From an uncultured delta proteobacterium (lineage in GTDB: Bacteria > Desulfobacterota > Binatia > Binatales > Binataceae): 64,000 nucleotides of DNA. Shown here in pieces: positions 24,973 to 41,857 of the stretch. The notes under the pieces were generated by a model that worked only from the letters and a program-made list of their open reading frames with translations, was not told the origin of the DNA and did not search any database. The DNA is taken from positions 836,067-900,066 of the forward strand of contig CAVWKW010000003.1 in assembly GCA_963755705.1 (NCBI GenBank), written 5' to 3'. The position numbers and the translations under genes were made by a program. Each line of letters starts with the position of its first letter. Positions within the stretch are counted from its first letter, which is position 1.

Positions 24973-26166
24973 TCACCCTTTCTGCTCTCTACTGCTCGGA
25001 ACTGCAGCCTGCTCGATCATAGTTTGATCATAGTCGCGCGCACGGCTTATCGGTGTGACCTTGGAGCGCTTGGCCTGCTTGCCCATATACTTTGCGAGAC
25101 GATCCATCGCGTCGATCAAGTCGTCGTCAGCCGTTATGTTGTAGCGATCCAGCATGGAGCGAGTTTTGTGGCCGCTTATCTCCATCGCGACGGTGTCACT
25201 TACTCCTGCGCGCTTGAGATTGCGCACTCCCGTGCGGCGCAGGTCGTAGGGCAGGATGCCTTTGACTCCGCCGACCAGCCCGACCTCAGAACAAGCCTTG
25301 ATCCATGCCGTATTGTACGAAGCGATGGGCCTCGGCTCCGTGCCTTCGCCATTTCTGATCTTGAAGTGATAGAAAACGTTCGGACAGTCCGGTCTTCGCC
25401 GCGCTAGAGCGCGCTCGATGATTTCCCAAAGCTCTCCAACCAGCGGAAGGCGCCTAGGTTCGCGGTTCTTGCTGCTGCGACGCGGCAGAAGGAGCACTCG
25501 GTTCTCAATATCGATTGAGCTCCAAAGCATTCCGAGGACCTCCCTTGGCCGCCAAGGCACGAGCGACATAAATGTGATTGGATCCTTAAGGCGCTCGGGA
25601 AGGCGCGAACGGATAGCAAGAAAGGTCGCTTGATCTATAAAGCCCTCACGAATCCCGTCGCTGAGATCGAATTGCCGCGGAAAAGCGGGAACATTCGCCG
25701 ACGAGAGTTCACCGTTCTCCACCGCAAGGTTGAACATACGTTTGAGGATCGAGACTTCGTGATTGACGCTAGCCTTCGCCGCTCCTTCGGCCAGCCGGTC
25801 GCGTCGGTAGCGCACAATCTGGCTGGTCATGATCTCGATGGCTCGAAGATCTCCGAAAGCTGGCCGCAGGTGGAGAAGGCGAACACTGAGCGCCTTCATG
25901 TGCTGGTTGTTAACGCGATAGTCGCTCTCGATTGCGGACGCCATCTCGTCGAACGTCAACCGTTCTGCGCGCGTTCCAATATAGCTCGCGCCACCGACCC
26001 TGGCCTTGGCAAATTGCTCCAAGAGAACCTTCATCGCCTTTTTCTCGTCGGGCGTGTGCGCGGTTCGGCGTACGGGCTTACCGCGATGAGCAAACTGGAT
26101 GAACCAGTTCTCCGATCCAGGCTGTTTGTAGATACTGCCGACTCCCCTAATTGTCTTCCTTTCCAT
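24973..26166 (-). CDS. tyrosine recombinase/integrase
   Basis: N-terminal arm-binding-like GVGSIYK..W.IQF; catalytic R (WRPRE), K (SSKN), YDLRR, SGHKT, RY; SD CAGGAG before ATG 26166. Confidence 0.93.
   Translation of the reverse strand: MERKTIRGVGSIYKQPGSENWFIQFAHRGKPVRRTAHTPDEKKAMKVLLEQFAKARVGGASYIGTRAERLTFDEMASAIESDYRVNNQHMKALSVRLLHLRPAFGDLRAIEIMTSQIVRYRRDRLAEGAAKASVNHEVSILKRMFNLAVENGELSSANVPAFPRQFDLSDGIREGFIDQATFLAIRSRLPERLKDPITFMSLVPWRPREVLGMLWSSIDIENRVLLLPRRSSKNREPRRLPLVGELWEIIERALARRRPDCPNVFYHFKIRNGEGTEPRPIASYNTAWIKACSEVGLVGGVKGILPYDLRRTGVRNLKRAGVSDTVAMEISGHKTRSMLDRYNITADDDLIDAMDRLAKYMGKQAKRSKVTPISRARDYDQTMIEQAAVPSSREQKG
25013..25036 (+). repeat. tandem 11-bp repeat pair, putative Int arm-type site
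   Basis: tcgatcatagtttgatcatagtcg, 23/24 identical to 41691-41714. Confidence 0.7.
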
Positions 26167-26545
26167 TCGGCGCTCTCCTGATCGTATCTCGCAGTCTCTT
26201 TTCGTTGTATCTTTGAATGCCTTCAAGTTCGAAGAGGGTTCTGCCTCCAATGTGGACGACGAACGGCAATTCCCGGACACGGTGCCATATCCATGACTGC
26301 GAGACGCCCAATATTCTAGCAGCGGTCTTGGCGTCAACGTTCCGAACCCTCGTCGGATCGTTGTCGTGTGGCACGGCGGCGCTCGACACTGCTGCGCTCG
26401 GCGCTTCTACGCTTTCAACACGATCATCGAGGGCAGCCAGCGCGACGCGCGCCTGTAAACGCAGATCGCGCGCTCTTTGCGGCGCGAGTTCACGCACCAG
26501 TTCCGGGCGCCGAGCTACTGCATCGAGAGAAAGGTCAAACTCCAT
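26147..26545 (-). CDS. excisionase-like HTH protein
   Basis: VDAKTAARILGVSQSWIWHR..LPF...IGGRTLF (HTH_17/Xis pattern); overlaps the int start. Confidence 0.75.
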   Translation of the reverse strand: MEFDLSLDAVARRPELVRELAPQRARDLRLQARVALAALDDRVESVEAPSAAVSSAAVPHDNDPTRVRNVDAKTAARILGVSQSWIWHRVRELPFVVHIGGRTLFELEGIQRYNEKRLRDTIRRAPNGKEDN

Positions 26546-27022: not shown

Positions 27023-29755
27023 TCACCTTCTGATGCCGTGGGCAGGGGTGATGTTCCGGCGCGGCGGTTCTGGAACGATCTTGATGTCTCTTCGCTCGTT
27101 CAGGTTGAGGCGTTCCAGGGCAATCGACTTTTCGCGGTTGCGCCCCACAGCTGAGTCGAGTCTGGCACGGTCGTCGGTGTACAAGCTCATCGCATGCCGA
27201 GCCCGGCTGATCGAGACGTAAAACTGTTTGCGGTTTACGAGTTCAGCCGAGCGAGCGGTATCGATATTAGCGATCACGCGATCAACCGTGGACCCCTGGC
27301 TGGAATGCGAAGTCGAGGCGTAACCGTAGTCGATGTGCTTCAGACGATCGATTGCCGCGCTGATCTCGCGCCCGTTGTCGCTGCGCAGGCGAGCTTTGTG
27401 ATCGTCGATTGCGACGACTGTCGCAAACTCTCCATTGGCGACACCGAGCGCACGATCCGGCGCGCGGAATTGAATCCGGTCGCCCGCTCCGAGAACGCGA
27501 CGCTCCTGATGGAAGACCTCGACTCCGGATAGGCGCGAAGGATCGTAGCTGACAGCTTTTCCGCTTTCATACCGCACCACCATTTGGTTCCGTTCCGGGG
27601 TGATTGCTTCGATCCGGGCATAACTTCCGCGGTCGATGCCCAGCCGCGCACTTCCCCGCCGGAATCGGAGCACGTCGTCAACTTCGTAACTCTGCGCTCG
27701 TTTGCGCTGAGGGCGGGTCAGAACGCGGTTTACAAGCACGATCTGTTCTCGTCTATCGGAGCCGATGTGTCCGCGTTCCTTGAAGGCTGCGCGAATGGCG
27801 GCGTTCAACTGGCGGCGCTCGTCGTTGGCAGGGCTGACGACGAGCACCTTTTCACCTGCCTCGTGCGCGCCAAGATATTCGCGCGCAATCGCCGCGTGGC
27901 GCTCATTCGGATCGACAATCTCGCGGATGCGACCCTGCTGCTCGAGGAGTGCGATTGCGCCTCCAATCTCTCCGCGCGAAGCGAGCGTGACCGCTTCACG
28001 CAGTCCGGGATCGAGTTGGCGACGAATAGTCTCCAATCGCGCGATGGGCATGCCCGCTTGCTGCATCTGCTGGATGGGCCGGCCAGCCTCGATGGCGTGG
28101 TGCTGGCGCTGGTCGCCGACGAAGACGACCCGACCGACTTCGGCCTCTCGCGCCTTGTGCAGCAGCGCGTTCATCTGGCGAGTGCCGAGCAGGCTCGACT
28201 CATCGATGATCCACAACTCTTTGGCTGCGCGATCAGGAAGCGGGCCGGCGAGCAGGCTCGCCACGGTCCGGGATTCGATTCCGGCTTCGGAAAGCGCCTT
28301 TACGGCGCGCGTGGTCGGAGCGAAACCGCGTACCGCGTAGCCAGCGCTCTCAGCGAAGTCGTTGAGCGCTCCGACCGTGGTAGTCTTCGCCGCGCCCGCG
28401 CGCCCTTCGATCGAGGTAAGCCAATCGGTGGCAGTCAGCGTCAGCACCGCCGCCTGAGCCTGCTCGGCGGATAGCGAGCGCGCGGCTGCCCAACTGCGCG
28501 CGTCTGGTTCAGTGGCGATTGCGTCGGAATGCCCTCTGCTAGCGCGCATGAGTTCGAGATTCTCGCGCTCAAGCACCACCATCTCCGGGGTGGTGAAAAC
28601 GACTCCCGGAAACGAAGGGGAAACAGCAAGGGCGATTAGATCGCCACGTGATTCCCGAATACCGGTCTCGCACCGCACGCCTTCCAGGTCGGCGATTCCC
28701 ATGGCGTACTGAAGAGCGGTGCGCTCCAGAGCGCGCCGGTCAGTGACGGCTTCGCGTTCGGTGTTGTGAGCTACGCTGAATCTGACCGCTTCCTCGATCC
28801 CAGCCGGAGAGACTGTCCGCGAGGGTCCGCGTGCGAGCGCGTGTTCCGAAATCTCGGCGAGCGCGATTCGATTGTCATGGGCGCGCGCCTGCCACTCCGC
28901 GCGAAGCTGGTTTTCGTCACGCTTTTCTTTGGCACGCCGGCTCTGATGGGCGGCGATCTGGGCCGCTGCCGCTCCGGTTGAGTTTTGGCGGGAAAGAAGT
29001 GCTTCGATGTCCTGGCGTCTACGCGAAAACGCCATTACCTGTTCGCGCGTATATCCTTGTAGCTCCCAGCGTCCGTCGGACGCGGTAAGGCTGATTCGAT
29101 ATCCAAGCGCTTGGACTTCGCGGGCGAGTTCCGAGCGATAAACCGCAGTCGCAAGGCTCTGGCTGCGATAGATCTCTATCGGGTCCAGGCTCCGCCACAT
29201 GCCGTCTGGCCGCAGCGTCATGTTGGCGATTACGACGTGGGTGTGGAGGTGAGGGTCAGGGCCGTAGCCGTCGTGGGTCCCAGTCTCCGAAGGTCGCGCC
29301 GCGATGTGCTCGAAGCGGGCCGCAACGAAATTGCCGGTGGTAACCCACTCCTGTCCGCGATGTCGGCGCGCTTGGGCGAACTGTTCAAGTTCCGAAAGCG
29401 CTCGCTCGACCGCGCGCCGATGCGCCTCTACCAGCCGCGCATCTTCGCCAACCAGCGCCTGGATACTGACTGACTTCGGCGCATTAAACGTCGCGTCCCA
29501 ACCTGCGCGGCGGTCGTCACGGCCAGCGGCAGCACTGACCAGGACTTCGCCGCTACCGGGTCTGGTTCCGCGCAGCACGGCCCGAAAATCTTCCTCGCTG
29601 ACTGCGCCGCTCAGCCCGAGGATCTCGGCGGCTCTTCCATACCATTCGCCGGTGACGCGGTGCGATTCGGTATAGTAGTCGTCCTCGGAGTATTTCTCCT
29701 GATAGTAGGTCTCGGCTTGGCCTACACTAAGCGCGCCTTTCGACATTACCAGCAT
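27023..29755 (-). CDS. MOB-F (TrwC/TraI-like) relaxase-helicase
   Basis: N-terminal YY…DDYY, D.TF.APKSVS, PHLHTH (HUH), helicase GRAGAAKTT / IIDESS / GDQRQH / YASTSHSSQG.TVD. Confidence 0.93.
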   Translation of the reverse strand: MLVMSKGALSVGQAETYYQEKYSEDDYYTESHRVTGEWYGRAAEILGLSGAVSEEDFRAVLRGTRPGSGEVLVSAAAGRDDRRAGWDATFNAPKSVSIQALVGEDARLVEAHRRAVERALSELEQFAQARRHRGQEWVTTGNFVAARFEHIAARPSETGTHDGYGPDPHLHTHVVIANMTLRPDGMWRSLDPIEIYRSQSLATAVYRSELAREVQALGYRISLTASDGRWELQGYTREQVMAFSRRRQDIEALLSRQNSTGAAAAQIAAHQSRRAKEKRDENQLRAEWQARAHDNRIALAEISEHALARGPSRTVSPAGIEEAVRFSVAHNTEREAVTDRRALERTALQYAMGIADLEGVRCETGIRESRGDLIALAVSPSFPGVVFTTPEMVVLERENLELMRASRGHSDAIATEPDARSWAAARSLSAEQAQAAVLTLTATDWLTSIEGRAGAAKTTTVGALNDFAESAGYAVRGFAPTTRAVKALSEAGIESRTVASLLAGPLPDRAAKELWIIDESSLLGTRQMNALLHKAREAEVGRVVFVGDQRQHHAIEAGRPIQQMQQAGMPIARLETIRRQLDPGLREAVTLASRGEIGGAIALLEQQGRIREIVDPNERHAAIAREYLGAHEAGEKVLVVSPANDERRQLNAAIRAAFKERGHIGSDRREQIVLVNRVLTRPQRKRAQSYEVDDVLRFRRGSARLGIDRGSYARIEAITPERNQMVVRYESGKAVSYDPSRLSGVEVFHQERRVLGAGDRIQFRAPDRALGVANGEFATVVAIDDHKARLRSDNGREISAAIDRLKHIDYGYASTSHSSQGSTVDRVIANIDTARSAELVNRKQFYVSISRARHAMSLYTDDRARLDSAVGRNREKSIALERLNLNERRDIKIVPEPPRRNITPAHGIRR

Positions 29756-29758
29756 GGC

Positions 29759-31552
29759 TCAGATCCGTTTCCTGCGTGTGCTCGCCGCTGCGGGACCAAG
29801 CGCGATCACCTGCGATCGCCGCGCTGGCTTCACCAGCGCGGGCAGATTGACGCGCGGGATGAAACCTTCCTGCCGGACTTGGGGCGCGAGATAGTCGAAG
29901 CGCACGAACGAGCGGTGATGACCGGTGACGCAGAGGTAGCCCGACAGCGGCTGGAGCAGCTGCATCTCGGCGGGCATCACCGCCGGTTCCGTCGTTCGCT
30001 GTTCGCGGATACCGAACGAGTATTGCTCCCGATGACTCGCGTTGGCGCTCAGGTGGCCGCGCTCAACCTCGCGCTCGCCGATCTGCGCGCTGCACCACTG
30101 GGCCGTTTCAGGCTCTCCGGTTCTGAGAATCAGCTTGGTGGCGGGCGAGGCGACCAAGGTGGCGGCCTGGTTGACGCCGTAGATGGTCCGCAGTTGCGTA
30201 ATAGCCTGAAAGCCGAGCACGACCGCCAGCCCGCGCTTGCGGCCGCGGACGACCAGATCCTCGAGCTTCGCTTGCCGTCTCAACACCGGAAGCTCGTCTG
30301 CAACGATCCAGACCTGTTCCTGTCTGCGCGGCCCAAGTTCCCGGCTCAGCAGCCGGTGGATGATGCAATCCAGCCAAACGCTCTGCAACTGCAGTGCTGC
30401 GTCTTTGGATTCTTCGGACGAGGTCAGGAACAGCCAGCCCTGTCGCTTCGCCGACCATTCCAATGCGCTCCAACTTCGCGGCGCGTTCTCGGGCAGGAAG
30501 TGAAAGGCCTTGGTCGCGTTGGCGGCGGTGGCGACGATGCCGGCGCCCTGCTCGTGCGCTCCGGGATCGATCAGCGCTTCGGCTGGCGTCCCGATAAGCG
30601 CCCGTCTGAGTTCGGCGCGCGGCAGCGTGAGCAGGCGCGGGATCGACGACGCTTCCCTGGGCTCGGCTATTCGGAAGATGCTGGTCAGCAGCGTCCGGCT
30701 GCTCTGACGGAAAAAGAAGCTCGCCCCGCCCTCGTGATACGCGTCCGGTGGGTCAGGGAGGAGCGAGGCGGCCAGCGCCTCGCAGTCGGCGTCGTGACTT
30801 TCATCGCGAAGCTCGCGCCACGGTGACCAGCGCGGGCAACGGGCATCGAGCGGATTGAGGATGAAGTCGCCGCGCCCGGGTTGATAGAACTCGGAGACGA
30901 ACTCGCACTCCGGGTCAACCACGACCGCGGTTTCACCGCGCTCCTCTATCTGCCGAAGCAGCGAACGTATGGCGACCGACTTGCCGGACCCAGTCGAGCC
31001 GGTGACGAGAAAGTGTTGGCACTCAAGCGCGCGCGGTATGCGAACGCCGGCGAGCCGAATGCCAGCGCGGCCGACCAGCTTGCGGGCGAGTTTGCGTGCT
31101 GGAACCAGAGTGATGCCGCGAATATGTCTGGCTTCGCAAGGAGCGCTGCGCACAAAGAGAATTGTCACGGCGGCGGCTTCGATCAGACCGGTCAGCGCCG
31201 CTCCCCATGGTGCGTAGTGCCAGTACCACGCAGCGAATGAGCCGCCGAGATAATACTTGTAATTGAGAAAGGCGTACATGCTGGCGATGGTGTAGCGCCC
31301 GCCGCGATAGAGGAGCGATGCGAAGGTCAGCGGAATCTCCTGGGTCAGGAACCACGCCAGAAACCAGCGGATGAAGTAGCGATGTGCGGCCGGACCGCCG
31401 TAATGCCCGCTCCAGTGCCAGACCAGGCAGATGGTCATCTCGATCCAGAGCGCCGCGGTCAGGAGGACGTAACGCAGCGCCTCTCTGAGTCTGAACTCCA
31501 GCGAAGCATAAAGGGCGTGTTCGTGGATTGCCTGACGAATGATGGGCGTCAT
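29759..31552 (-). CDS. type IV coupling protein (TrwB/TraD-like)
   Basis: N-terminal TM segments, Walker A GSTGSGKS, VVVDP..EF, Walker B IVADELP, LGFQ...QL..IYG. Confidence 0.9.
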   Translation of the reverse strand: MTPIIRQAIHEHALYASLEFRLREALRYVLLTAALWIEMTICLVWHWSGHYGGPAAHRYFIRWFLAWFLTQEIPLTFASLLYRGGRYTIASMYAFLNYKYYLGGSFAAWYWHYAPWGAALTGLIEAAAVTILFVRSAPCEARHIRGITLVPARKLARKLVGRAGIRLAGVRIPRALECQHFLVTGSTGSGKSVAIRSLLRQIEERGETAVVVDPECEFVSEFYQPGRGDFILNPLDARCPRWSPWRELRDESHDADCEALAASLLPDPPDAYHEGGASFFFRQSSRTLLTSIFRIAEPREASSIPRLLTLPRAELRRALIGTPAEALIDPGAHEQGAGIVATAANATKAFHFLPENAPRSWSALEWSAKRQGWLFLTSSEESKDAALQLQSVWLDCIIHRLLSRELGPRRQEQVWIVADELPVLRRQAKLEDLVVRGRKRGLAVVLGFQAITQLRTIYGVNQAATLVASPATKLILRTGEPETAQWCSAQIGEREVERGHLSANASHREQYSFGIREQRTTEPAVMPAEMQLLQPLSGYLCVTGHHRSFVRFDYLAPQVRQEGFIPRVNLPALVKPARRSQVIALGPAAASTRRKRI

Positions 31553-31893
31553 GACGGTATCTCCTTGCTCTTCAGCACCTGTGCGACGTGCTCCTTGGCG
31601 GTCTGTTCGGCGGAGTCGATGATCTCGTCGACCACCTCCGCTCCCAGCGTGTGGTCCAGCGAATGCAAGATGACGGAGCGGGTCTTGGCGACCTCGAAGA
31701 TGAGCTGCGCGTACTCATCCAAGGATTGGATTTTTGTCTGAGGCTCCATCGCTGACGGAGCGGCGCCGAGGTAGCGCGCAGCGAGAATTTTGCGAATCAG
31801 ATCGCTTTCGGTCACGCTTCGGCGGCGCGCTTCGGCCGCAAGCTGATCGGCGATTTCTTCCGGGACTCGGGTTGAGATCGATCGGGAGTTCAT
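31549..31893 (-). CDS. ribbon-helix-helix relaxosome accessory protein (TrwA-like position)
   Basis: SISTRVPEEIADQLAAEARRRSVTESDLIRKIL; first gene of an RHH-T4CP-relaxase operon. Confidence 0.75.
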   Translation of the reverse strand: MNSRSISTRVPEEIADQLAAEARRRSVTESDLIRKILAARYLGAAPSAMEPQTKIQSLDEYAQLIFEVAKTRSVILHSLDHTLGAEVVDEIIDSAEQTAKEHVAQVLKSKEIPS

Positions 31894-32069
31894 GTGTGGT
31901 TCTCCAAAGTCTGCTGTAGACGGGTGTTTACACTGATTTGGCGAGGACTTAGACCGCTTCGCACCTCTTCCTGTAGACAGCGTCTACCCAATGTTTTCGG
32001 GTACTTGCACGAATCGCGTTCATCCAGGCGATGAGTGACGTGTCAATTCCCAAACACGTGCGAAGCACG
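31894..32069. other. candidate oriT
   Basis: Intergenic region upstream of RHH-T4CP-relaxase; CTGTAGAC repeated at 31914 and 31971; hairpin GTAGAC-agc-GTCTAC at 31973-31987. Confidence 0.45.
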
Positions 32070-32369
32070 TCAGCCGACCTTCCGCTGATGGCAATCACGA
32101 TTCGCCCTTGGCGCTGCCGTTGGATGAAGACTGGAGCGGAGACACGGCGTGACTGGCTGTTCAGGAGAGCGCGCCCACAAATGGAACTCACGATCAGCTT
32201 GGCCGAAGGCACTGAGAATCTCCGGAATCAGCGCCTTCAAGTCCACAGCGTTGCCGTGAACGTGCTCGTAGTAGCGCGCGTAACTTTCGAGGTCGGCATT
32301 CAGATCGCCGGCTAGCTTCACGCGTACCTGCAGGAAACGAAGCGGCTTTGCGATGCGTGCGAGTTTCAT
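32070..32369 (-). CDS. DUF2274-like protein
   Basis: MKL…V.L..DL.ADL..YA……V….LIP.IL..F…DREF pattern; SD GGAGGT. Confidence 0.65.
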   Translation of the reverse strand: MKLARIAKPLRFLQVRVKLAGDLNADLESYARYYEHVHGNAVDLKALIPEILSAFGQADREFHLWARSPEQPVTPCLRSSLHPTAAPRANRDCHQRKVG

Positions 32370-32406
32370 ATCGGACCTCCACCAATGCATACTTGGAAAC
32401 GACTGC

Positions 32407-32745
32407 TCAGAAGGGCGCGAGGTAAGTCAGCAAATGGACGGCGATCAGGGCGGCCCAAGCCGCTACTCCGCCAGCCAGCAGGCGCCCTGCTCGTGGGTAG
32501 CTGCCGATCGCGTACAGGATCACTGACAAGGCGAAGTTCAGCATTATTACGGCGTGAGCGACGGGACCTACCAGCATGTCCTGAATCGCGCCCAGCGTCT
32601 GATCCCACGGCATGGCATCAGCGTATTGCGCGGCCCGCGACGGCTGGGCTCGTAGCGCGAACAGGGCGGCGGCGCAGGCGGCGATGAGCCATCTGAGGTT
32701 CAATTTCGGCGCATGGTTTACCGCGGTTGGAGTCATGGGCAACAT
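32407..32745 (-). CDS. TrbC/VirB2-family pilin
   Basis: Signal peptide, then MPWDQTLGAIQDMLVGPVAHAV (TrbC motif) and two hydrophobic helices. Confidence 0.75.
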   Translation of the reverse strand: MLPMTPTAVNHAPKLNLRWLIAACAAALFALRAQPSRAAQYADAMPWDQTLGAIQDMLVGPVAHAVIMLNFALSVILYAIGSYPRAGRLLAGGVAAWAALIAVHLLTYLAPF

Positions 32746-32847: not shown

Positions 32848-33513
32848 CTACTCGGTCAGATAGCCGAGCTGGGAGAGCCGCACAGTGGCGGCCTCGACGG
32901 ATACATCGAACGCAAGCGAAATACGCTGGCAGAGCGCTGACGCTTCTGGCGAGCCCTTGGCAACCGGCAGCCGCTCAGAGCGATTCTGCAAATACGCCGC
33001 GACCGCGCGCCGCGCGAAGCTCTCCGGCATCAACAGCGCGCCACCGGCGTAGCCTGCCTGCCATTCCGCCCAGTCAACCACGCGGCTGGTCGGAAGCAAG
33101 TCCTTCCAGTAACAGCGCTGCGGACTGTCAGACACCGCATACTGATCATACAGCCACGTGTGCAGCATCACGTGGCCATATTCGTGGGCCAGTGTCATGC
33201 GCAGGCGATTGCTGCGAGTTCGCTGTTCCCAGAGTTCCCGCGCGATCTTGACGATCGGCTTCCCGCCCCGGTGGAAGAGGGTCACGCCGAAGGTCTGGTA
33301 GGTGTCATCGGACAGGTCCGCAGCAATGTCGAAGTCGGCAGCGTCGCGCTCGATAAGCAGGGTGAAGGCTTCGGTTGGGACTGGAATCCGGTCAAACCCG
33401 TAGCGCTCGCGCAGGAAGGTAGTGATGGTCTGCTCGCTGCGCTCATCCAATTCTGATGACTCCCAGAATGGACGCTTGCGGAAACGCCCGGTCCTGTCCG
33501 GTATCATCTTCAC
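32848..33513 (-). CDS. ImmA/IrrE-family metallopeptidase
   Basis: RLRMTLAHEYGH (HExxH), EWQA..AGG.LLMP, F.VS.EAA..RL. Confidence 0.88.
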   Translation of the reverse strand: MKMIPDRTGRFRKRPFWESSELDERSEQTITTFLRERYGFDRIPVPTEAFTLLIERDAADFDIAADLSDDTYQTFGVTLFHRGGKPIVKIARELWEQRTRSNRLRMTLAHEYGHVMLHTWLYDQYAVSDSPQRCYWKDLLPTSRVVDWAEWQAGYAGGALLMPESFARRAVAAYLQNRSERLPVAKGSPEASALCQRISLAFDVSVEAATVRLSQLGYLTE

Positions 33514-33833
33514 GGTCTTTTCTTGCGCTTTACTTCCCGCCGAAACGCCTTCCAGCCTGCGGCGAGTTCCTGCGCACTGTTAACGGTCGTTGCGCTGAGG
33601 TCGGCGGGAAACCGCCCTGCCAAAAAGTAGAGCACATCCGAATCGATCTTGAGAACCTTTGCGAGTTGTTCAAGGACTTCGTCGGAAGGCTTGCGCCGAT
33701 CGTGTTCAAGGTCAACCAGGAACGGAATCGAGATCGGTTTGCCATCGGAGTTGCGCACTTCCGCCACCACTTCGCGCCCGGCCAGCCCCAGCTCCTTGCG
33801 CCGCTCAACGATAAACTGCCCCAGTGTTTGCAT
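33510..33833 (-). CDS. XRE-family HTH repressor (ImmR-like)
   Basis: LGQFIVERRKELGL…S..FL.DLEHDRRKPS.EVL..LA.VL; ATGA overlap with immA. Confidence 0.85.
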   Translation of the reverse strand: MQTLGQFIVERRKELGLAGREVVAEVRNSDGKPISIPFLVDLEHDRRKPSDEVLEQLAKVLKIDSDVLYFLAGRFPADLSATTVNSAQELAAGWKAFRREVKRKKRP

Positions 33834-33839
33834 AATTGA

Positions 33840-33849
33840 GCTATGTAGC
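33840..33849. promoter_or_regulatory. operator-like palindrome GCTA-TG-TAGC, 7 nt upstream of the repressor ATG
   Basis: Third copy of the 10-mer. Confidence 0.7.
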
Positions 33850-33969
33850 ATATTTGCAAAAGCGCCGTAAGCCTCTGCTTGGCGCCGCCCGGAGCATGAG
33901 TCAACCGCGCGGCGGCGAGTACCGGACTTTTGCTCAGCAGGCCTCAAGTAATACGGCGGGCTGAAGTAT

Positions 33970-35274
33970 CTATCTTCCGAATAGTTCGTTATCGATGACG
34001 CCGGTGTTGAGCTTTTGTGTGCCCGGATCAAGACGCATCGTGAGGAGCAAGTCCGTCCGATCGCCCGGGACGAAAAACTCGTTGGCGAGTTCCATCTCGT
34101 TTCCACCGCCATCGGGCATAGTTCGTACGCTCCAAAGGGGCACTGCGGAATCTTCGAATCCGGGATGCTCTAGATCATAGCCGAGCAGGACGAACGTCTC
34201 GCTGTCAATGTAAATGCGCGCGCGGAGCGGCCGAACCGAGATGAGGCCTAATAAAGAGGATGCCTGTAATTGGACGGGGCTGGCCTCCATGACGTAGGCA
34301 GAGCGCAACTCGAAATTCTCTTGGCCCAGTTCGATCCGATGTCCCGAGCGGATTATCCCCGCCGGCTTCGTTTCGGCATGCAGGCAGGCAAGAACGGATT
34401 GAACTCCGAGTAAGCGAAACTTGTACGCCATCGGTGGCGGAGAAACGTATTCCCACCAGAACTGAGTACATCCGTAGGTACACTGATCTGAGGCGTATAC
34501 CAAGCCGAAAAATGAATTGGACCCGCCTCCGAAGATCCACCAGAGTGCATCACCCCATGAAATATATCCGATCGAACTGCCTGAAACGTCCCACTCGCCG
34601 GGATCCTCAAGGTCGCTCCATGCGATCGAATAGTCCCTGGAGCGGCCGCACTTCATGCCGCGAACTCTCCACTCGAAGGGAATCTTCACGGAGACTCTTG
34701 GAATCGGCTCGACTTTGCTGCGATGCGCGTAGCGTATGAAGATGAGCGTATTGCACGGTCCCTCCGACCGGAAGTCGTCATCATCGTCGCGAGGTATCAG
34801 AGCATTCGACTCGGCGTTGACCGCATAGGCTTGTGAGCGGTTTGAACTAAACAGCATTACGTCATCGGGCACAAACGGACCCCAATGCCAGTTGTACGCC
34901 ACCTTCATCGCTGCGTTCGGATCGTTGACATCAACCAGCGGAAAAGGAAAGCCTGCGACGTAATTATGCACCTCATTCCCGTTGACTAGACGCACTTGAC
35001 CCGAGTACTGCTCGGTAAGTTTTCGAAAGCGAGGCGGCCAGTCAATACGCTCGGTCGGCACGACTGTGGCCCTGAGTCCGTGAGCAATCGCAAATTTCAG
35101 CGCGGCGGGAAGATATTTCGCATACAGGTCAAGGTTGTTGCGATCGACAATTGTGCCGACGCGAGGCGGTTCGGGCGCGTTCGATTGGTAAGGCGTCCCG
35201 GCGCATGCGTTGCGCGCCACGCAGGCCAGCAGAAGCGCGATGGCAACGCCGATGCTCGCACGATTGTGCCCCAT
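33970..35274 (-). CDS. DUF1329-family exported protein (possible lipoprotein)
   Basis: GTIVD..N...Y..YLP…TEQYSGQV…NYVAGFPFP.…DP.AA.K.AYNW matches my recall of DUF1329; signal peptide contains LLLAC. Confidence 0.7.
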   Translation of the reverse strand: MGHNRASIGVAIALLLACVARNACAGTPYQSNAPEPPRVGTIVDRNNLDLYAKYLPAALKFAIAHGLRATVVPTERIDWPPRFRKLTEQYSGQVRLVNGNEVHNYVAGFPFPLVDVNDPNAAMKVAYNWHWGPFVPDDVMLFSSNRSQAYAVNAESNALIPRDDDDDFRSEGPCNTLIFIRYAHRSKVEPIPRVSVKIPFEWRVRGMKCGRSRDYSIAWSDLEDPGEWDVSGSSIGYISWGDALWWIFGGGSNSFFGLVYASDQCTYGCTQFWWEYVSPPPMAYKFRLLGVQSVLACLHAETKPAGIIRSGHRIELGQENFELRSAYVMEASPVQLQASSLLGLISVRPLRARIYIDSETFVLLGYDLEHPGFEDSAVPLWSVRTMPDGGGNEMELANEFFVPGDRTDLLLTMRLDPGTQKLNTGVIDNELFGR

Positions 35275-35411
35275 TCGCTATTCTCCGTTCACGCCGGTCT
35301 TGCACGAAGGCGTGGCCTCAAAGCCCGGCAATACAGGGCGCGCCGATGTCTCGCGATCTAGATACCATATACCATGAGAGCGGCTCCCAAGAGGATCAAC
35401 CGGATGGAACT

Positions 35412-38400
35412 TCAAGGAGACGGTGCTACAGGCACGCAAGGCCACGACCCACCGCCGAACCATGAACAGAAGGAGCCCGATGAAAGGGTCAAGGTATCTT
35501 CGGGCGACCCGCACGTATTAGTGCATGGATTTCCGGATCCAAGGGCCGTTGGCATCGAACCCACCACCAATCTCTGCGTTGTTTGAGGTGTCGGTGTCGT
35601 GATGTCAGCCGTATCCAGATTCACCGGGAGCCCGCCATACTGGGCGAGACCTCCAAGACCATAAAGCGATACATTCCGCTGCGCCATCAGCTCTGAACTA
35701 ACATAGAGAGAAAATGTTAAGCCGCCGCCAATGGTAAAGCTTCCTCCTCCCTTGCCGTTCCCCTTTCCCTTCATCCCGAACTGCCCTGACGGTGGGGCAG
35801 GGCCACCCCCACCACCACCGCCGCCGCCACAGCCGGCGCTGAATAGTCCTAGCGGATCGGAGAAGTTGGTGGGGCTGTCGAAGGAGTAGGCGAAAAGATT
35901 GGCTTGGCCGCCGACGAAGCCGATCGGATCGGGTGAGAGGAAGCGCCCGAGGAGCGGATTGTAGTAGCGCGCGCGAAGATCGTAGAGCCCGCTGGGATCG
36001 GATTCGCGCCCGAGATATTGAAATGGATTCGCCACCGTCGGTCCGCCCATTGCTGGCGACGCTCCATACGGACCGTATTGGTATTGAACGGCGAACGCGC
36101 CGCTGGAATTCACCAGCCCCGCGACCGATCCGGGCGCCTCGGCGAGCATCGCGTAGATCTGGCCCGATTCGGAGAGTGAAAAATACCCGTCGAGGTTAAG
36201 CCCCGGTATCATATCCACCGTGCCCCCTGAAGTCTCTTGCTGCGCGACGTTGAGACCATCATAGACATACTGGGTGGTCGCACCGTTGTTCAGCAGCCCG
36301 ACACGGCGTCCCTCGGCATCATAGGTGAAGCTGCTTTGCACGCCACTTGTCGTCGAGGCGAGTTGATTGCGTTCGTTCCATGCATAGGTTGCGGATAGCG
36401 ACGGATCGAACGTCAGGTTGCCATTCCCGTCGGTCGTCGCTGGAGTGGTGTTCCAAGTGGCGAGCTGATTGCCGGCATCGTAGGTCGCCGTCATAGCGTA
36501 GGGCATATTGACAGTAGCCAGCGTCCCACCGAAGCTGTTTACTCGTCCATCCTGATCGTAACCATAGGTCAGGTTGCCCAGGTTGCCGCCGCCGGTACTG
36601 CTGTAGTTGATCGAGGTCGGATGCGAATCCGCATCGTAGCCGTAGCTGATCGTGACACTATTGGGCTGAGTGATGGTCTCCGGCCTTCCGTCAGCATCGT
36701 ACACGAAGCCAACCGCCTGCGTTCCGCGAGTCTCCGAAATGAGGTTGTCGTCATTATCATAGCTGTAGGCCGTCTGTGCCTGATTGCTCGCAGTCATCGT
36801 TTGGCGCCGCTGCGCGAGATCATAGGTATAGCTGACACCTGCATTGAGGGTCGCGGACACATACGAGGTAGTCAACGGATCATCGAGCCCGTCGTAGGTC
36901 GCCGTCAGCGTGTCGCCCGCGCTGCCGGTGCCGCTGTCGTGAGCGCTGGTCAAGCGATTTCCACCGTCGTAAACGTAAGCGGTCTGGGTCTGATTATATC
37001 CCGCTGTTTTGCTGGTATTATATTGCGCGGTGATCAAGCGGCTAAGCCCGTCGTAGGTGAACTGATCGGTCAACGAGCGACCATCGGTTATACTGGTAAC
37101 GTTTCCGAGTGGGTCCATATCAGCCGTTTCACACCGATTGGCGCCATCGCAGCGCTGGACCGTATTATACTGGTAGTTGCGGCTGTAGATTAATTGATGG
37201 CCGTTCGCGTCAGTGACGGTGACCAGATTTCCCAGCGGGTCGTAAGCGAGTTGTGTAACCGCGCCGGTCGCATCAGTCATTTTGGTCACACGATTCATCG
37301 CGTCGTACACAAACGACGAGGTCTTCTGCAACGCGTCTTCGACCGAGGTCAGGCGACCCACCGTGTCATAGCCGAGAGTGAATACCGCGCTCAGCGGATC
37401 GGTGACCATCTGCAAGTCTCGCGACGAATCGTAGGCAAAGCTGGTCGTGTTCTGGAGCGCATCGGTCAAGGTTAGCATCTGCCCCGCCGAATTATAGGTT
37501 GCCCTCACTGTATTCCCCAGCGGATCGGTTCGGGTCGTCGCGTTGCCGTAGCCATCGATAGAAATGCTGGTTTTGTGGCCGAGCGGATCGGTCACGCTGG
37601 TTAGCTGGCTGAAGCTTGGATCGTACGTGTAAGAAGTGGTCGCTGCCTGCGGTGTCCCGGACAGTTGAGTAATGGAGAGGATGTTTCCGTAGGAACCATA
37701 GACGTAAGTAGTGGTCCGTCCGAGCTGATCGGTAACGGATGTAACCTCACTGGTATTTGCATCAACAACATATTGTGTAACCTGCTGTTCAGGTTCTCCT
37801 TCCGCCTGAGTGTCCTCGGTGATGTAGTCGTTGCCGTTGAAATTCAATTCGCGAACATAATTTCGGGGATCCGTGATTTTAGCCCAAGCAGCAGGGCCGT
37901 TTCCCTGCATCCCAGATGGGTACTGGTAGCTGTAGTTTCCAAGCACTCCAGTCGTTGATGTTAGGCGATGAACGCTGCTGTAGCTGATAGCGCCAGTCGC
38001 CGCGACCTGATATTCCACGATTCCGGTCATATCCGCCTTGGTTCCCGTCCAATCAAAGGTGGTCCACGCGCCATCCGCATTATAGAAAGAAGTCATCTGG
38101 GCGTCTGAATTATAAGCATAAATTACGGTTCGCCCCGCGCTATCGACAGCCTGTGTAATTTGGCCCGGATTGCTCGATTCGGTGTAGTAGAGGTTGATGT
38201 AACGGCCATCGGTATCCGTGATCTCGGTTGGGTTGCCAGACGAATTTCTGACGACATTGACCTGGTTTCCATAGCGATCAGTAATCGAGGCCAGTGCTGC
38301 ACCGTTTGGAAAATAGAAAGTCTCGCCATCCTTGCGGCGCACATTCCACCCCGGTTCCGAAGAATTATACGATACCACGGCAGCGAAGAAGCTCCCGGGA

Positions 38401-38894
38401 TTGTTCGTGCATTGAAACACTGCATCGGTATAGTCGGTACAGTTGTTTTTGCTACAGGATGAGGTCCGGGCACAATTAAACTGCGCCCCGTCGGGCATCA
38501 CGATCTGCATGTTCGTGTAGTTGCCGTTGTTCACGTAGCTCTGTGAGAACAACTGGAGATCATAGTTCGAGGTCATCCCGACCCCGAAATCGAACGTGAT
38601 CGTATTACCGGCGCCGTCCACCTCCTGGGAACGATAGGTGCGCGTGAGCACAAGCGGGATTGGCCCCGGCAGAGTGAGATCGGTCGTCGAGAATTCATAG
38701 TAACCGCGCGCCAGTGCGGTTAGCGGCTCCTCCGGATTAGGTCCGTTGGCGGGAATCATGGCTTCGCCGCCGAAGATGTCGGTCAGGGGTTGGATTGTAG
38801 TCAGTTGCGGCTGAGCCATTCTTGGCCAGATCGCGAAACCGGCCACCAGCAGTAGGATAACCGAGAACCATCGAAAAGGGTGAACGAGCTTCAT
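35412..38894 (-). CDS. Sec-exported Rhs/YD-repeat protein with DUF6531-like N-terminus and Rhs core
   Basis: Signal peptide; TDL.LPGPIPL..TRTY.S; many YD repeats; core YQYLGRE.D.SGLY…ARYY.P.LGRFLSPDPIG…N.FAY…P…SDPLGL. Confidence 0.92.
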   Translation of the reverse strand: MKLVHPFRWFSVILLLVAGFAIWPRMAQPQLTTIQPLTDIFGGEAMIPANGPNPEEPLTALARGYYEFSTTDLTLPGPIPLVLTRTYRSQEVDGAGNTITFDFGVGMTSNYDLQLFSQSYVNNGNYTNMQIVMPDGAQFNCARTSSCSKNNCTDYTDAVFQCTNNPGSFFAAVVSYNSSEPGWNVRRKDGETFYFPNGAALASITDRYGNQVNVVRNSSGNPTEITDTDGRYINLYYTESSNPGQITQAVDSAGRTVIYAYNSDAQMTSFYNADGAWTTFDWTGTKADMTGIVEYQVAATGAISYSSVHRLTSTTGVLGNYSYQYPSGMQGNGPAAWAKITDPRNYVRELNFNGNDYITEDTQAEGEPEQQVTQYVVDANTSEVTSVTDQLGRTTTYVYGSYGNILSITQLSGTPQAATTSYTYDPSFSQLTSVTDPLGHKTSISIDGYGNATTRTDPLGNTVRATYNSAGQMLTLTDALQNTTSFAYDSSRDLQMVTDPLSAVFTLGYDTVGRLTSVEDALQKTSSFVYDAMNRVTKMTDATGAVTQLAYDPLGNLVTVTDANGHQLIYSRNYQYNTVQRCDGANRCETADMDPLGNVTSITDGRSLTDQFTYDGLSRLITAQYNTSKTAGYNQTQTAYVYDGGNRLTSAHDSGTGSAGDTLTATYDGLDDPLTTSYVSATLNAGVSYTYDLAQRRQTMTASNQAQTAYSYDNDDNLISETRGTQAVGFVYDADGRPETITQPNSVTISYGYDADSHPTSINYSSTGGGNLGNLTYGYDQDGRVNSFGGTLATVNMPYAMTATYDAGNQLATWNTTPATTDGNGNLTFDPSLSATYAWNERNQLASTTSGVQSSFTYDAEGRRVGLLNNGATTQYVYDGLNVAQQETSGGTVDMIPGLNLDGYFSLSESGQIYAMLAEAPGSVAGLVNSSGAFAVQYQYGPYGASPAMGGPTVANPFQYLGRESDPSGLYDLRARYYNPLLGRFLSPDPIGFVGGQANLFAYSFDSPTNFSDPLGLFSAGCGGGGGGGGGPAPPSGQFGMKGKGNGKGGGSFTIGGGLTFSLYVSSELMAQRNVSLYGLGGLAQYGGLPVNLDTADITTPTPQTTQRLVVGSMPTALGSGNPCTNTCGSPEDTLTLSSGSFCSWFGGGSWPCVPVAPSP

Positions 38895-39421
38895 CGGCCG
38901 CCCTCCTCTCGATCCGCCAGCGTGTTGACTGTGAGTATCCGGCCGCCGCGAATATCGCGATTCTCAATCTTCGCGGTTCGCTTTGTATTTGTGACCGTCG
39001 GAGAGGTTGAGACTAGCGCTGTGTCGGCTAATTCGATCGGAAAGCCGAACACCCCGCTTGCCCTTCCGTATAGCTCCGCCGCTGCGTAGCTGCTTGGCGC
39101 GGTGGAGAGGGAAGGTTGGGCATTGCCCTGCGGCGGATTGGTTATTGTAATAGATAGCAGATTTCCTACCGGATCGTACGAATAGGTGGCTGTTGTTCCC
39201 GATGGGTTCGTGACCGAAGTCAGACGCCCCGCAGGGTCGTACGCATAGGTGATATTCTGCGCAACGGCGAGCGACCCACTGGCGAGCACGATCATGGTCG
39301 TTAGCGCCAGCAGGAGAGCGAATCTGGCGAAAGCATCATGTGCGATCGCCAGACGCTCTTGAAACCGTTGTTTTCTTTGCACTGCGCGACGGTTACAAAG
39401 CTGGCTGTTCGATGAGGCCAT
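38891..39421 (-). CDS. small exported protein with two YD repeats
   Basis: SD GGAGGGAG before ATG 39421; hydrophobic signal …SLAVA, then ITYAYDPAGRLTSVT and YSYDPVGNLLSIT; ATGA overlap with rhs. Confidence 0.7.
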   Translation of the reverse strand: MASSNSQLCNRRAVQRKQRFQERLAIAHDAFARFALLLALTTMIVLASGSLAVAQNITYAYDPAGRLTSVTNPSGTTATYSYDPVGNLLSITITNPPQGNAQPSLSTAPSSYAAAELYGRASGVFGFPIELADTALVSTSPTVTNTKRTAKIENRDIRGGRILTVNTLADREEGGR

Positions 39422-39605
39422 GGCTCCCTCCCATTTACAGACCATCGTCGCTGCGAGCTGCCGCTTCGGCGCGCATGTTCGGAAATGCACTTTGCGGCGC
39501 ACTGTTGCTCGCTATTGCACTTCTGCTCTCGTACCGCTAGAGCATCTGAAAGTCAAGCGCGCCCACATACCGTGAAATAGAGGGTCGGCATAACGGCTAA
39601 GAGTC

Positions 39606-41291
39606 ATGACTAGTTCACCTCTTGGTACAGGTCAGGTTACGGACCGATTGGAGAATCCCCGCTATTCGATGGACGAGTACCGAGAACGCTCGGTGCCTGC
39701 CATTGCCCCGACCGGCGGCTACCTGACAATCGCGCAGGCGTCCTGCTTATCGATCATCAGTGGAGCGGCACTGGCAACAGCGTTTCCGAAGGTATCACTT
39801 GGACTTCTAGCGTGGGGTGCTTTCGTCCCACTGTATTTCGCGATCGACGGCGCGCGGCTGAGGCGAGTCTTCTGGCTAACATGGCTGCAACAGCTCACGT
39901 TCTTGATTTGTACACTTTACTGGCTCTGGATCCCCCTTCACGTCGATGGTCACAAGCCAATCGTGATTGCAGCCGGGACGATCTTCTTCGTGACGGTTGT
40001 GGAAGCTTTGTTCGGCGCGGCATCTGTTCTCAGCGCCGAATTCATAAGTCGGAGGCTCAGTATATCGCGCTTGATCAGCTATTCTGTTGCGTGGACCGTT
40101 TTCGAATGGGTTCGAAGCTTCTTTCCTGTTGGCTTTCCGTGGAATCCGCTGGGCGACGCGCTGTTCAGCGAAATTACGGTGATTCAGATTGCTGAAGTAG
40201 TCGGAGTTTTCGGATTATCCGCGCTGATTGTTTTTGTAAACGTCGCGCTATGGGAGATAGCGGCTGCAGGGCTCTCCGGAAAGCAGAAGACTCGAGAAAC
40301 ATTTTCTCTGGCGATAGTCATAGCTATGGTGATCGGATTCGGGATACTGCGAACGCGAGAACTCGAACAGATACCGCCGGCGGGCCATTTGACGGTTGCG
40401 ATGGTTCAGGGAAACATCCCTCAGAGCGCGAAATGGGACCCCGCGCAACTTCCACCCACATTCAAGATTTACTCAGACGCAACAGAAGCAGCAGCGCATT
40501 CGCGACCCGACCTAATCATCTGGCCGGAGACGGCTGCCGACTTTTTCTTTCAGCCATTGAATGCTTATCCGTGGGCGTTCAGAACCGATGCTCAATACTG
40601 GGCACGGTTGGCCAGCTTAGCTGCGCGGCTCGGAGTACCGATCCTGTTCGGCGCGCCCGCGCTCGATATTGGCCGCGACCTGAAGACACGTAATCGCGCT
40701 TACCTGCTCGGTGGCGACGGACGCGTCTGCGACTACTACGATAAGATCGAGCTAGTGCCGGTTGGAGAATACGTTCCCGTTCTGCTGAGACATTTTGTAA
40801 AACGAATGGTCGAGGCGCCTTCCGACTTCTTCCCTGGCAACCGGCAGACCGTATTCAATGTGGGAACCGCTCGAATCGGAGTTTTGATCTGCTACGAATC
40901 ACTCTTCCCGTACTTGAGCCAACACGTGGTGCGCAGGGGCGCCAATGTCCTTGTGAATATTACGAATGATGCGTGGTATGGCCGCAGCTCGGCACCGTAC
41001 CAATTGCTCGCTATGACCGTGATGCGCGCGGTCGAGAACCGCACCCCTGTGATCAGGGTTGGAAACACGGGAATCAGTGCAATTATTACGGCGGTCGGCC
41101 GCATTCAGGGCGCTACTCAACTATTCACGCGCACGACTGAGATAGAGACGGTCGAGTGGAAAAATGTCCGCGCGTTCTATTCTCAATCGGGCGATGTCTT
41201 CGCTTGGGTGTGCTCAGCGCTGCTCGCGCTCGGTTTGCTCGCAACGGCAGCGATGTCGATCCGGGACCGCACGGGCGCCTCGCCTAGGTGA
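39606..41291 (+). CDS. lnt: apolipoprotein N-acyltransferase
   Basis: Multi-TM N-terminus with GFPW; nitrilase triad WPE, YDKIELVPVGEY, ICYES; NITNDAWYG, RAVENR. Confidence 0.93.
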   Translation: MTSSPLGTGQVTDRLENPRYSMDEYRERSVPAIAPTGGYLTIAQASCLSIISGAALATAFPKVSLGLLAWGAFVPLYFAIDGARLRRVFWLTWLQQLTFLICTLYWLWIPLHVDGHKPIVIAAGTIFFVTVVEALFGAASVLSAEFISRRLSISRLISYSVAWTVFEWVRSFFPVGFPWNPLGDALFSEITVIQIAEVVGVFGLSALIVFVNVALWEIAAAGLSGKQKTRETFSLAIVIAMVIGFGILRTRELEQIPPAGHLTVAMVQGNIPQSAKWDPAQLPPTFKIYSDATEAAAHSRPDLIIWPETAADFFFQPLNAYPWAFRTDAQYWARLASLAARLGVPILFGAPALDIGRDLKTRNRAYLLGGDGRVCDYYDKIELVPVGEYVPVLLRHFVKRMVEAPSDFFPGNRQTVFNVGTARIGVLICYESLFPYLSQHVVRRGANVLVNITNDAWYGRSSAPYQLLAMTVMRAVENRTPVIRVGNTGISAIITAVGRIQGATQLFTRTTEIETVEWKNVRAFYSQSGDVFAWVCSALLALGLLATAAMSIRDRTGASPR

Positions 41292-41690: not shown

Positions 41691-41714
41691 TCGATCATAG
41701 TTCGATCATAGTCG
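41691..41714 (+). repeat. tandem 11-bp repeat pair, putative Int arm-type site
   Basis: tcgatcatagttcgatcatagtcg, 67 bp inside the tRNA-side att. Confidence 0.7.
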
Positions 41715-41781: not shown

Positions 41782-41857
41782 TGGAGGCGGCGATCGGATT
41801 CGAACCGATGCATGGAGGTTTTGCAGACCTCTCCCTTAACCACTTGGGTACGCCGCC
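41782..41857 (-). tRNA. tRNA-Cys (GCA)
   Basis: 76-nt cloverleaf: GGCGGCG/CGCCGCC acceptor stem, GAGGT-CTGCAAA-ACCTC anticodon arm, TTCGAAT T-loop, encoded CCA. Confidence 0.97.

Follow-up and report, generated by a model that had tools for sequence, protein, structure and literature searches.

Why does a mobile element carry a gene for apolipoprotein N-acyltransferase (Lnt), head-to-head with genes for an exported Rhs protein? The question is raised by a 64,000-nucleotide stretch of DNA from an uncultured delta proteobacterium (contig CAVWKW010000003.1, positions 836,067 to 900,066; referred to here, at its full length, as the window), the host of which is probably a member of the Binataceae as judged from protein matches. 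Within the window lies a 16.9-kb integrative mobilizable element, the cargo of which consists of four open reading frames (ORFs): a DUF1329-like gene, an Rhs gene and a gene for a small YD-repeat protein (mini-YD), all on the minus strand, and a divergent lnt. An earlier note on this DNA had listed these four ORFs, and Pfam and NCBIfam searches found them at the places and with the domains that it gave. The note further proposed that the Lnt, the DUF1329 protein as a possible lipid carrier and the Rhs cocoon make up one lipidation and export route in place of a classical toxin-immunity pair. As described below, comparison with related loci supports the link between Lnt and Rhs and assigns the DUF1329-like gene elsewhere.

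An accessory Lnt recurs beside mini-YD and Rhs genes

The Lnt of the element (39606..41291, plus strand; 561 aa) comprises PF20154 (LNT_N) and PF00795 (CN_hydrolase) and scores 333 bits against the lnt equivalog TIGR00546 (cut-off 132.9), matches that identify it as a member of the apolipoprotein N-acyltransferase family. Divergent from it are the genes for mini-YD (38891..39502, minus strand), with a predicted signal or anchor helix, one double YD hairpin and a disordered tail, and for the Rhs protein (35412..38894, minus strand; 1160 aa). The likely true start of mini-YD is ATG 39421, which gives a 176-aa protein and matches the database call, and its stop codon overlaps the Rhs start by 4 nt, which points to translational coupling.

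We found 11 distinct loci at which an Lnt is linked to Rhs (the window, L001, L004, L005, L006/L065, L007, L068, L086, L087, L176 and L178), a count that covers every member of these Lnt lineages with a readable upstream flank. At all 11, a mini-YD gene followed by a Sec-type Rhs gene adjoins lnt, usually head-to-head, and the genomic contexts are unrelated. The closest relatives of the window Lnt (80, 77, 74, 59 and 53% identity) are divergent from a small YD gene and then a Sec-type Rhs gene, again in unrelated surroundings. Lnts at ~50% identity (P0008/L086 and P0089/L087) also adjoin mini-YD/Rhs, and identity to the window Lnt falls as low as 46% among the linked enzymes. At L068 the mini-YD/Rhs pair is flanked by two Lnts (2287-3873, minus strand, and 9866-11575, plus strand) that are 45% identical to each other. 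A search from the mini-YD side, which constitutes an independent sample, found a divergent Lnt on two of three long contigs (L176 and L178).

The controls showed no such association. Our scan of GTDB representative genomes recovered 78 Lnt loci, of which 61 were core Binataceae copies, and Rhs was found within 10 kb of the core gene at none of the 61. Likewise, of 80 generic YD loci taken from metagenomes, not one has an Lnt; the metagenome scan with mini-YD patterns gave mostly generic or giant YD(+TIG) proteins and serves as a negative control only, not as a census of the module. The gene order alaS-phoH-X-lnt was found at all 42 core Binataceae loci long enough to check and is absent at the window Lnt. 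In E. coli, the housekeeping gene has a context of the ybeZ-ybeY-ybeX-lnt type.

In neighbour-joining trees the core clade excluded all Rhs-linked Lnts, including both copies at L068, in 94 of 100 bootstraps, and the window Lnt is ~50% identical to the Binataceae core lnt. The window Lnt thus falls outside the vertically inherited Binataceae set and is not a chance capture. Across loci, pairwise identities of the Lnts and of the Rhs cores co-vary (Spearman 0.61, p 0.003). Because the synteny is not unique to this genome and the window Lnt does not group with vertically inherited copies, we conclude that the link between Lnt and Rhs is real and that, on the evidence of gene order, the accessory Lnt, mini-YD and Sec-Rhs form a conserved three-gene unit. 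We infer that the accessory Lnt works together with mini-YD and Rhs. The larger Lnt-Rhs-DUF1329 unit that the earlier note envisaged holds in part, in that Lnt with mini-YD and Rhs recurs in 11 loci; DUF1329 occurs in the window module alone and is absent from all 10 others.

Full-text literature searches yielded no paper joining Lnt with Rhs functionally, nor any presenting mini-YD or Lnt as Rhs accessory genes. What is new here is the conserved accessory-Lnt/mini-YD/Sec-Rhs unit, of which we found no description; mobile copies of lnt as such and the polymorphic-toxin kind of Rhs are already known. Indeed, 301 plasmid records in PLSDB carry lnt homologues, and the view of lnt as normally a core, single-copy gene is too strong. 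Those plasmid genes (in Rhodobacterales, Rhodococcus and others, sometimes as lnt-lspA) share with the window lnt its location on mobile DNA, but they are at most 35% identical to it and have no Rhs link in the annotated features under the matches, wider contexts not having been examined.

The surroundings of individual modules varied. The L086 module lies beside a type IV coupling protein (T4CP)-like gene and Cas3/GSU0053/GSU0054 cas genes, those at L176/L177 beside BilABCD-like ubiquitin-like-system genes and HTH_17, and that at L178 between a relaxase, Multi_ubiq/ThiF/BubE genes, a RES-domain gene and an integrase; all of these are defence-island or mobile contexts. The vicinity of L068 contains a 314-aa ORF and orphan Rhs fragments. 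At two loci the Lnt call was irregular: a 329-aa protein at L065 (the same locus as L006; 10001-11594) and a gene split in two at L178 (7972-9702). In both cases tblastn covers nearly the full protein, pointing to either long-read frameshift errors or decaying copies.

The Rhs-linked Lnts retain the essential residues

The E-K-C triad and the equivalents of W237, E343, Y388 and E389 are present in all 11 aligned Rhs-linked Lnts and in 60-61 of the 61 core sequences, where the reference sequence and the list of essential residues are those that we take to hold for E. coli Lnt. The window lnt is therefore intact, as had been noted from its triad, and keeps four further essential residues as well. 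A dN/dS of 0.15 against the L001 enzyme indicates purifying selection. Clade-specific changes in the active site of the accessory enzymes were considered and rejected, since there are five discriminating columns and none falls at an essential residue. The window Lnt thus shares with housekeeping Lnt (TIGR00546) its domain architecture, triad and further essential residues and differs from it in standing outside the alaS-phoH-X-lnt context and the core clade, on an integrative element and linked to Rhs.

There is no second lnt within the 64-kb window, and the GTDB representatives that gave hits do not include the window genome. For three representative genomes with an Rhs-linked Lnt, the genome scan, the patterns of which are contained in ~80% of core-like Lnts, also found no second lnt locus, and the linked Lnt may sometimes be the only one in its genome. 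The CN-hydrolase part of the window Lnt has in addition a weak match (E 1.4e-4, far under the cut-off) to NF010401, 'conjugal transfer protein TraB', which hints that other transfer systems also bear Lnt-like nitrilase-fold proteins.

The Rhs protein is of the polymorphic-toxin kind and has a Sec-type signal

The Rhs protein begins with a Sec-type signal (K2, R8 and then a 14-residue hydrophobic stretch); signal-peptide cleavage sites, here and below, were read by eye. A DUF6531 plug and a YD shell follow (PF05593 in eight stretches, E 1.9e-46; TIGR01643), and the core match to TIGR03696 (residues 940-1017) terminates at SDPLGL, which contains the DPLGL autoproteolysis motif. Directly after DPLGL comes the C-terminal tip (residues 1018-1160 plus stop; 35412..35843, minus strand), which is 143 aa long and Gly-rich, with six Cys and hydrophobic stretches, and is presumed from its position to be the toxin payload. 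We found no PAAR or VgrG domain in the Rhs protein and no type VI secretion system (T6SS) gene among the window ORFs scanned, which bears out the earlier note on this point. By these features the protein is not of the T6SS-delivered type of Rhs effector and has a Sec-type signal instead.

The tip differs in every related locus. Orthologues of the Rhs protein bearing other tips occur at 10 further loci, and the tips of six orthologues are mutually unrelated. Among 1.84e9 representative proteins the window tip has a single relative, an orphan Rhs fragment at L171-173 (82% identity). Known domains were found neither in the window tip nor in six of seven other tips, and that of L007 gave a sub-threshold match to DUF4258. 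The window tip starts as ...DPLGL|FSAGCGGGG, in which SAGC is loosely lipobox-like and is kept in the orphan copy; we rejected the idea that tips in general carry such a motif behind DPLGL, since those of L001 and L087 have no Cys and others have a different context. At L007, which is from an 'Isosphaerales' metagenome-assembled genome, the tip with the DUF4258 (RNase-like) match (1034-1363, minus strand) is followed by a signal-less 108-aa ORF (690-1013, minus strand) and then by an orphan Rhs tip. Because this tip may be RNase-like and the next ORF is signal-less, at least some tips of the Sec-Rhs family would need access to the target cytoplasm.

Taken as a whole, the repeats, plug, DPxGL core, variable tip, partner gene and orphan arrays in relatives mark the locus as an Rhs polymorphic toxin. 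The DUF6531 plug, the YD shell, the core end at DPxGL, the variable tip, the downstream gene specific to that tip and, in relatives, the arrays of orphan tips with partners are all shared with the Rhs/YD polymorphic toxins in general, among them the T6SS-linked Rhs proteins of Proteobacteria and the Sec-exported WapA of Firmicutes. Unlike T6SS-linked Rhs, the window protein has no PAAR, VgrG or T6SS and bears its Sec-type signal in a host that is probably diderm, because the window encodes a TonB-dependent receptor. Two accessory genes also set it apart from known Rhs and WapA proteins: a mini-YD(+TIG) gene that lies before the Rhs gene and is translationally coupled to it, and a gene for a dedicated Lnt paralogue.

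The mini-YD protein belongs to a family of 372 small YD(+TIG/IPT) proteins. In these, cleavage of the signal sequence is predicted at AxA|Q or AxA|G, the YD hairpin follows a few residues further on, and a TIG/IPT domain is usually present as well. The predicted cleavage is AxA|G at L068, L086, L087 and L176 and AxA|Q in the window and at L001, L004, L005 and L007. An AlphaFold2 (AF2) model gives four confident strands at residues 58-94 and a tail that is predicted to be disordered in the window lineage (pLDDT <50). A reading of mini-YD as a lipoprotein was entertained, since in an alignment of eight sequences a Cys closes the hydrophobic segment in five of six lineages; it was dropped because among 120 family members this Cys is unconserved even within sub-families and a plain AxA|Q/G site for signal peptidase I is common.

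The DUF1329-like gene is a partner of the tip

The DUF1329-like gene (33970..35274, minus strand) encodes a predicted periplasmic protein of 434 aa that matches PF07044 in its N-terminal part only (E 1e-9). It has 48 full-length relatives, which are annotated DUF1329, and a dN/dS of 0.24. A search of PDB by sequence gave nothing significant. The AF2 model of moderate confidence (pLDDT 75.9, pTM 0.80) gave as its top Foldseek match 3BUU, of the LolA superfamily (E 8.8e-5, prob 1.00, TM(target) 0.54), followed by LolB, RseB and LprG, which supports a LolA-like open beta-barrel fold. DUF1329 has been placed in the LolA superfamily (PMC6394551), and the link to a LolA/LolB fold that the earlier note had suggested is thereby confirmed. 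In Pfam family, fold and predicted periplasmic location the protein is like other DUF1329/LolA-superfamily proteins, including AmeB of Castellaniella (PMC6394551) and PDB 3BUU. It differs from the AmeB type in that the genes in the window and at L171-173 stand directly after an Rhs tip and not in an RND/DUF1302 uptake or efflux cluster.

The gene begins 137 bp downstream of Rhs, in the immunity position. It had been noted that no small immunity gene follows the Rhs; there is indeed no small ORF there, but the DUF1329-like gene itself occupies the slot. At other loci the genes that follow Rhs are different: a CPBP/Rce1-like membrane protein at L001, small ORFs, and the cytoplasmic 108-aa protein at L007, with a CPBP/Rce1-like gene also at L086, further downstream. 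The most telling loci are L171-L173 (for example, L171 2076-11308), where orphan C-terminal fragments of Rhs form an array; a CPBP/Rce1-like gene comes after every fragment except the last, behind which stands a DUF1329-like gene. That last gene encodes an 83%-identical homologue and lies directly after a 334-aa orphan Rhs fragment bearing the window-type tip; the fragment is 82% identical to the window Rhs over the 143-residue tip and 72% identical over a 333-residue alignment that runs from DPLGLFSAGCGGGG to CVPVAPSP. CPBP proteins appear to be the commonest partners in the immunity slot of this Rhs family.

Because it accompanies the same tip elsewhere too, after an orphan Rhs fragment within a tip/partner array, the DUF1329-like gene fills a classical immunity slot. 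We conclude from this distribution that it is a tip-specific partner and not part of the three-gene unit, and its product is probably an immunity factor. This is the signature of a toxin-immunity pair, which the earlier note had set aside. A LolA-fold protein in this slot would act in the periplasm to neutralise the Gly-rich tip, which it might enclose in its LolA-like cavity. The homologue keeps the AxA site of the protein but not its apparent lipobox (LLLA|C in the window, LLLV|C in the homologue), and on these grounds the protein is probably periplasmic and soluble.

Possible roles of the accessory Lnt

The closest precedent for an Lnt paralogue with a dedicated partner is AatD of enteric E. 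coli, which N-acylates the N-terminal Gly of CexE/Aap after processing by signal peptidase I (PMC7943197). Because Lnt itself complements an aatD mutant (PMC7478709), a canonical-looking Lnt can act on a substrate that has no lipobox. Like the Aat-CexE(Aap) system (PMC7943197, PMC7478709), the window combines a mobile Lnt-family paralogue with a lipobox-less, Sec-exported protein; chemistry and compartment would be the same, and for several relatives of mini-YD the N-terminus is predicted as AxA|G(G).

By this analogy, our leading reading, held tentatively and short of what we would call probable, is that one of the module proteins, most likely mini-YD as an adaptor for Rhs, would be lipid-anchored in an AatD-like way. 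Mini-YD and Rhs would both be exported by Sec, and the Lnt paralogue, its active site facing the periplasm, would move a phospholipid acyl chain to an amino group on one of the module's proteins. As acceptor, the new N-terminus of mini-YD after signal-peptidase cleavage (predicted AxA|Q here and AxA|G in several relatives) would be the best candidate. Acylated mini-YD would then dock the Rhs cocoon through its YD hairpin, and the lipid-anchored toxin complex could reach the outer membrane or the cell surface without a T6SS. Such a mechanism would resemble that of Myxococcus SitA in that mobile polymorphic toxins would be lipid-anchored in the outer membrane and delivered without a T6SS. The SitA proteins are lipoprotein toxins with a canonical lipobox that are delivered by outer-membrane exchange; they do not belong to the Rhs proteins and are not known to have a dedicated Lnt. 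A statement about the enzymes themselves, that the Rhs-linked Lnts are dedicated protein N-acyltransferases that lipidate a lipobox-less part of the Rhs complex, be it mini-YD, the Rhs N-terminus or the neo-N-terminus of a tip set free by DPxGL cleavage, we regard as possible but more doubtful.

Several observations weigh against lipid anchoring of this kind or against the wider picture of an Lnt-dependent toxin module. No conserved lipobox Cys is found in the mini-YD, Rhs or DUF1329-like proteins, so that the sequences give no sign of the lipidation of the payload or of DUF1329 that had been proposed. The predicted mature N-terminus of mini-YD in the window lineage is Gln and not the Gly that AatD requires, as judged from cleavage sites read by eye; unlike that of CexE, acylation here is a proposal. 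Unlike Aat, the module is accompanied by no Lol-, ABC- or TolC-like exporter: AatPABC (a LolCDE-like ABC transporter, an adaptor and a TolC-like protein) has no counterpart in the element, nor consistently in the 10 related loci. Since AatPABC is lacking and only some mini-YD proteins have the predicted Gly, the window Lnt is not a member of the AatD system. The enzymes differ as well: AatD is short (~400 aa) and forms a separate lineage restricted to Enterobacterales, whereas the window Lnt is full-length and canonical-looking. Between accessory and core Lnts there are only the five clade-discriminating columns, all seven essential residues are kept, and there is no sequence sign of new specificity. 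The Rhs-linked Lnts themselves come out as monophyletic in 42 of 100 neighbour-joining bootstraps, which is weak. The window tip matched no known toxin domain, and toxicity and immunity are assigned from position. Finally, at L174 a close mini-YD/Rhs pair lies beside secE-nusG-rpoBC with no Lnt within 10 kb, and Lnt is therefore not required in cis.

Two further observations concern the search for partners. A hidden, conserved small lipoprotein ORF was rejected, because a lipobox scan of ORFs of at least 30 aa at the 11 loci gave only scattered, non-orthologous candidates. An RND pump lies downstream of the module at L005 and is unrelated.

One alternative is that the accessory Lnt is a canonical helper that N-acylates diacylglyceryl-Cys lipoproteins, assuring or boosting this activity in a recipient host, and leaves mini-YD and Rhs unmodified. 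We consider this unlikely, though it is the most serious of the competing explanations. The enzyme itself is what one would expect on these grounds, since it is canonical in sequence (333 bits to the equivalog, essential residues kept, five discriminating columns), and mobile copies of lnt are common elsewhere, some of them beside lspA (the 301 plasmid records). Nor did the genome scan find a second lnt in three genomes with a linked Lnt, and the L174 pair has no adjacent Lnt. What the explanation does not account for is that these Lnt lineages stand constantly head-to-head with mini-YD/Rhs, and with no other genes, down to 46% identity, or that the core lnt is never linked to Rhs. As to the need that a helper might serve, lipoprotein immunity proteins and envelope stress from heavy export of the 1160-aa cocoon are both conceivable. 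Several ORFs in the immunity slot do have plausible lipoboxes (LLLA|C in the window, LIG|C at L068, FIG|C at L176), but these proteins vary and many are not lipoproteins, such as the multi-pass CPBP protein of L001 and the cytoplasmic 108-aa protein of L007, and the lipobox of the window DUF1329-like protein is not kept in its 83%-identical homologue (LLLV|C).

A second alternative is hitch-hiking, in which an ancestral insertion set mini-YD/Rhs beside a duplicated lnt and the block then spread on mobile DNA with no functional interaction. Co-divergence of Lnt and Rhs is expected of any co-inherited block, and mobile or island surroundings recur among the modules, namely the integrative mobilizable element here and T4CP, relaxase, integrase, HTH_17 or rve_3 genes at L086, L178, L176 and L001. 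Two Lnt copies also look broken (the 329-aa call at L065 and the split gene at L178), although long-read assembly error is possible. Against such passive spread stand the purifying selection on Lnt and the catalytic residues intact in 11 of 11 aligned copies. The junction between Lnt and mini-YD also persists while tip, immunity slot and surroundings are reshuffled, and at L068 the pair lies between two Lnts. We therefore judge hitch-hiking to be improbable.

The route of the earlier note, in which Lnt, a DUF1329 lipid carrier and the Rhs cocoon form one lipidation and export system and no toxin-immunity pair, draws on a real Lnt-Rhs linkage, on the LolA/LolB/LprG-like fold of the DUF1329-like protein and on the loosely lipobox-like SAGC conserved at the tip start of the orphan copy, but it is largely refuted by the comparative data and now very improbable, because DUF1329 is absent from all 10 other modules and co-varies with the tip and not with Lnt, other tips have no Cys (L001, L087) or apparently act in the cytoplasm (L007), and orphan tip/partner arrays are a hallmark of toxin-immunity cassettes.

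The mobile element and its chromosomal setting

Two perfect 49-bp direct repeats, at 24861-24909 and 41782-41830, mark the ends of the element, and the right-hand one is the 3' part of a tRNA-Cys(GCA) gene found by ARAGORN (41782..41857, minus strand). The left end, attL (24861..24909), is a displaced copy of the 3' 49 nt of tRNA-Cys, and the right end, attR, lies in the 3' 49 nt of the tRNA gene itself. Next to attL is a tyrosine integrase gene (24973..26337, minus strand; Pfam Phage_integrase and Int_N), followed by genes for a TrwC-type relaxase/helicase (27023..29755, minus strand; TrwC E 2.5e-84, AAA_30, UvrD_C_2) and a type IV coupling protein (29759..31552, minus strand; TrwB_AAD_bind E 1.8e-88, TraG-D_C). 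A block of small transfer-associated genes (31549..32745, minus strand), with mostly weak Pfam matches, encodes an RHH protein (31549-31893, minus strand), a DUF2274 protein (32070-32390, minus strand) and a TrbC/VirB2-like protein (32407-32745, minus strand). Between this block and the cargo lie genes for an M78/ImmA-like peptidase (32848-33513, minus strand; Peptidase_M78 E 1.8e-5) and a helix-turn-helix protein (33510-34112, minus strand; weak HTH_3 match), a pair (32848..34112) that we take to be the likely regulators of the element by analogy with pairs of the ImmR/ImmA type. The Pfam scan found no complete type IV secretion system in the element, of which only the TrbC-like and DUF2274 genes are represented. 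By its integrase, tRNA direct repeats, relaxase and coupling protein we classify the element as integrative and mobilizable and, because a full type IV secretion system is lacking, not self-transmissible.

A 24-nt repeat, TCGATCATAGTT[T/C]GATCATAGTCG, occurs at 25013-25036 and 41691-41714 with 23 of 24 positions identical. It is built from two GATCATAG half-sites and lies ~70-110 bp from the 49-bp repeat at both ends of the element; these repeats are candidate arm sites for the integrase or an excisionase.

The GC content is 0.54-0.60 in the cargo versus 0.62-0.67 in the flanks, where ordinary chromosomal genes are found (transketolase, fabF/fabH, methylmalonyl-CoA mutase, cytochrome oxidase and a TonB-dependent receptor). 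Just left of attL, within the lowest-GC kilobase of the window (0.514), a DUF3800 ORF (22230-23078) may be a remnant of another island beside the tRNA-Cys integration site. An XhoI-type restriction-modification pair (11522-13310), consisting of an N6/N4 DNA methylase (11522-12559, plus strand) and an XhoI-family endonuclease (12576-13310, plus strand), sits in a lower-GC patch (0.54-0.58) amid chromosomal genes. To the right of the element, an 1128-aa ORF (42117-45503, plus strand) is mostly the antisense shadow of a hybrid histidine kinase gene (41973-44471, minus strand), and only its 3' end (~44.76-45.39 kb, DUF169) resembles a real gene.

Implications

Rhs toxins of diderm bacteria are understood almost wholly as T6SS cargo. 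The recurrent, selectively maintained pairing of Rhs with an Lnt paralogue and mini-YD offers a testable handle on how a Sec-exported Rhs cocoon would leave the periplasm. A LolA-fold protein in the immunity slot, together with a tip that has a single relative in 1.84 billion representative proteins, adds new entries to the catalogue of toxin and immunity types. More broadly, a 'housekeeping' lipoprotein enzyme has distinct accessory lineages that are tied to interbacterial weaponry on mobile elements, and the only well-studied parallel, AatD, proved to define a new class of lipoproteins. If the AatD-like reading is true, the module would add to AatD another, independent instance of bacterial protein lipidation at a residue other than cysteine, the second such case, and a lipid-anchored Rhs toxin would represent a new, T6SS-free route of Rhs delivery in diderm bacteria.

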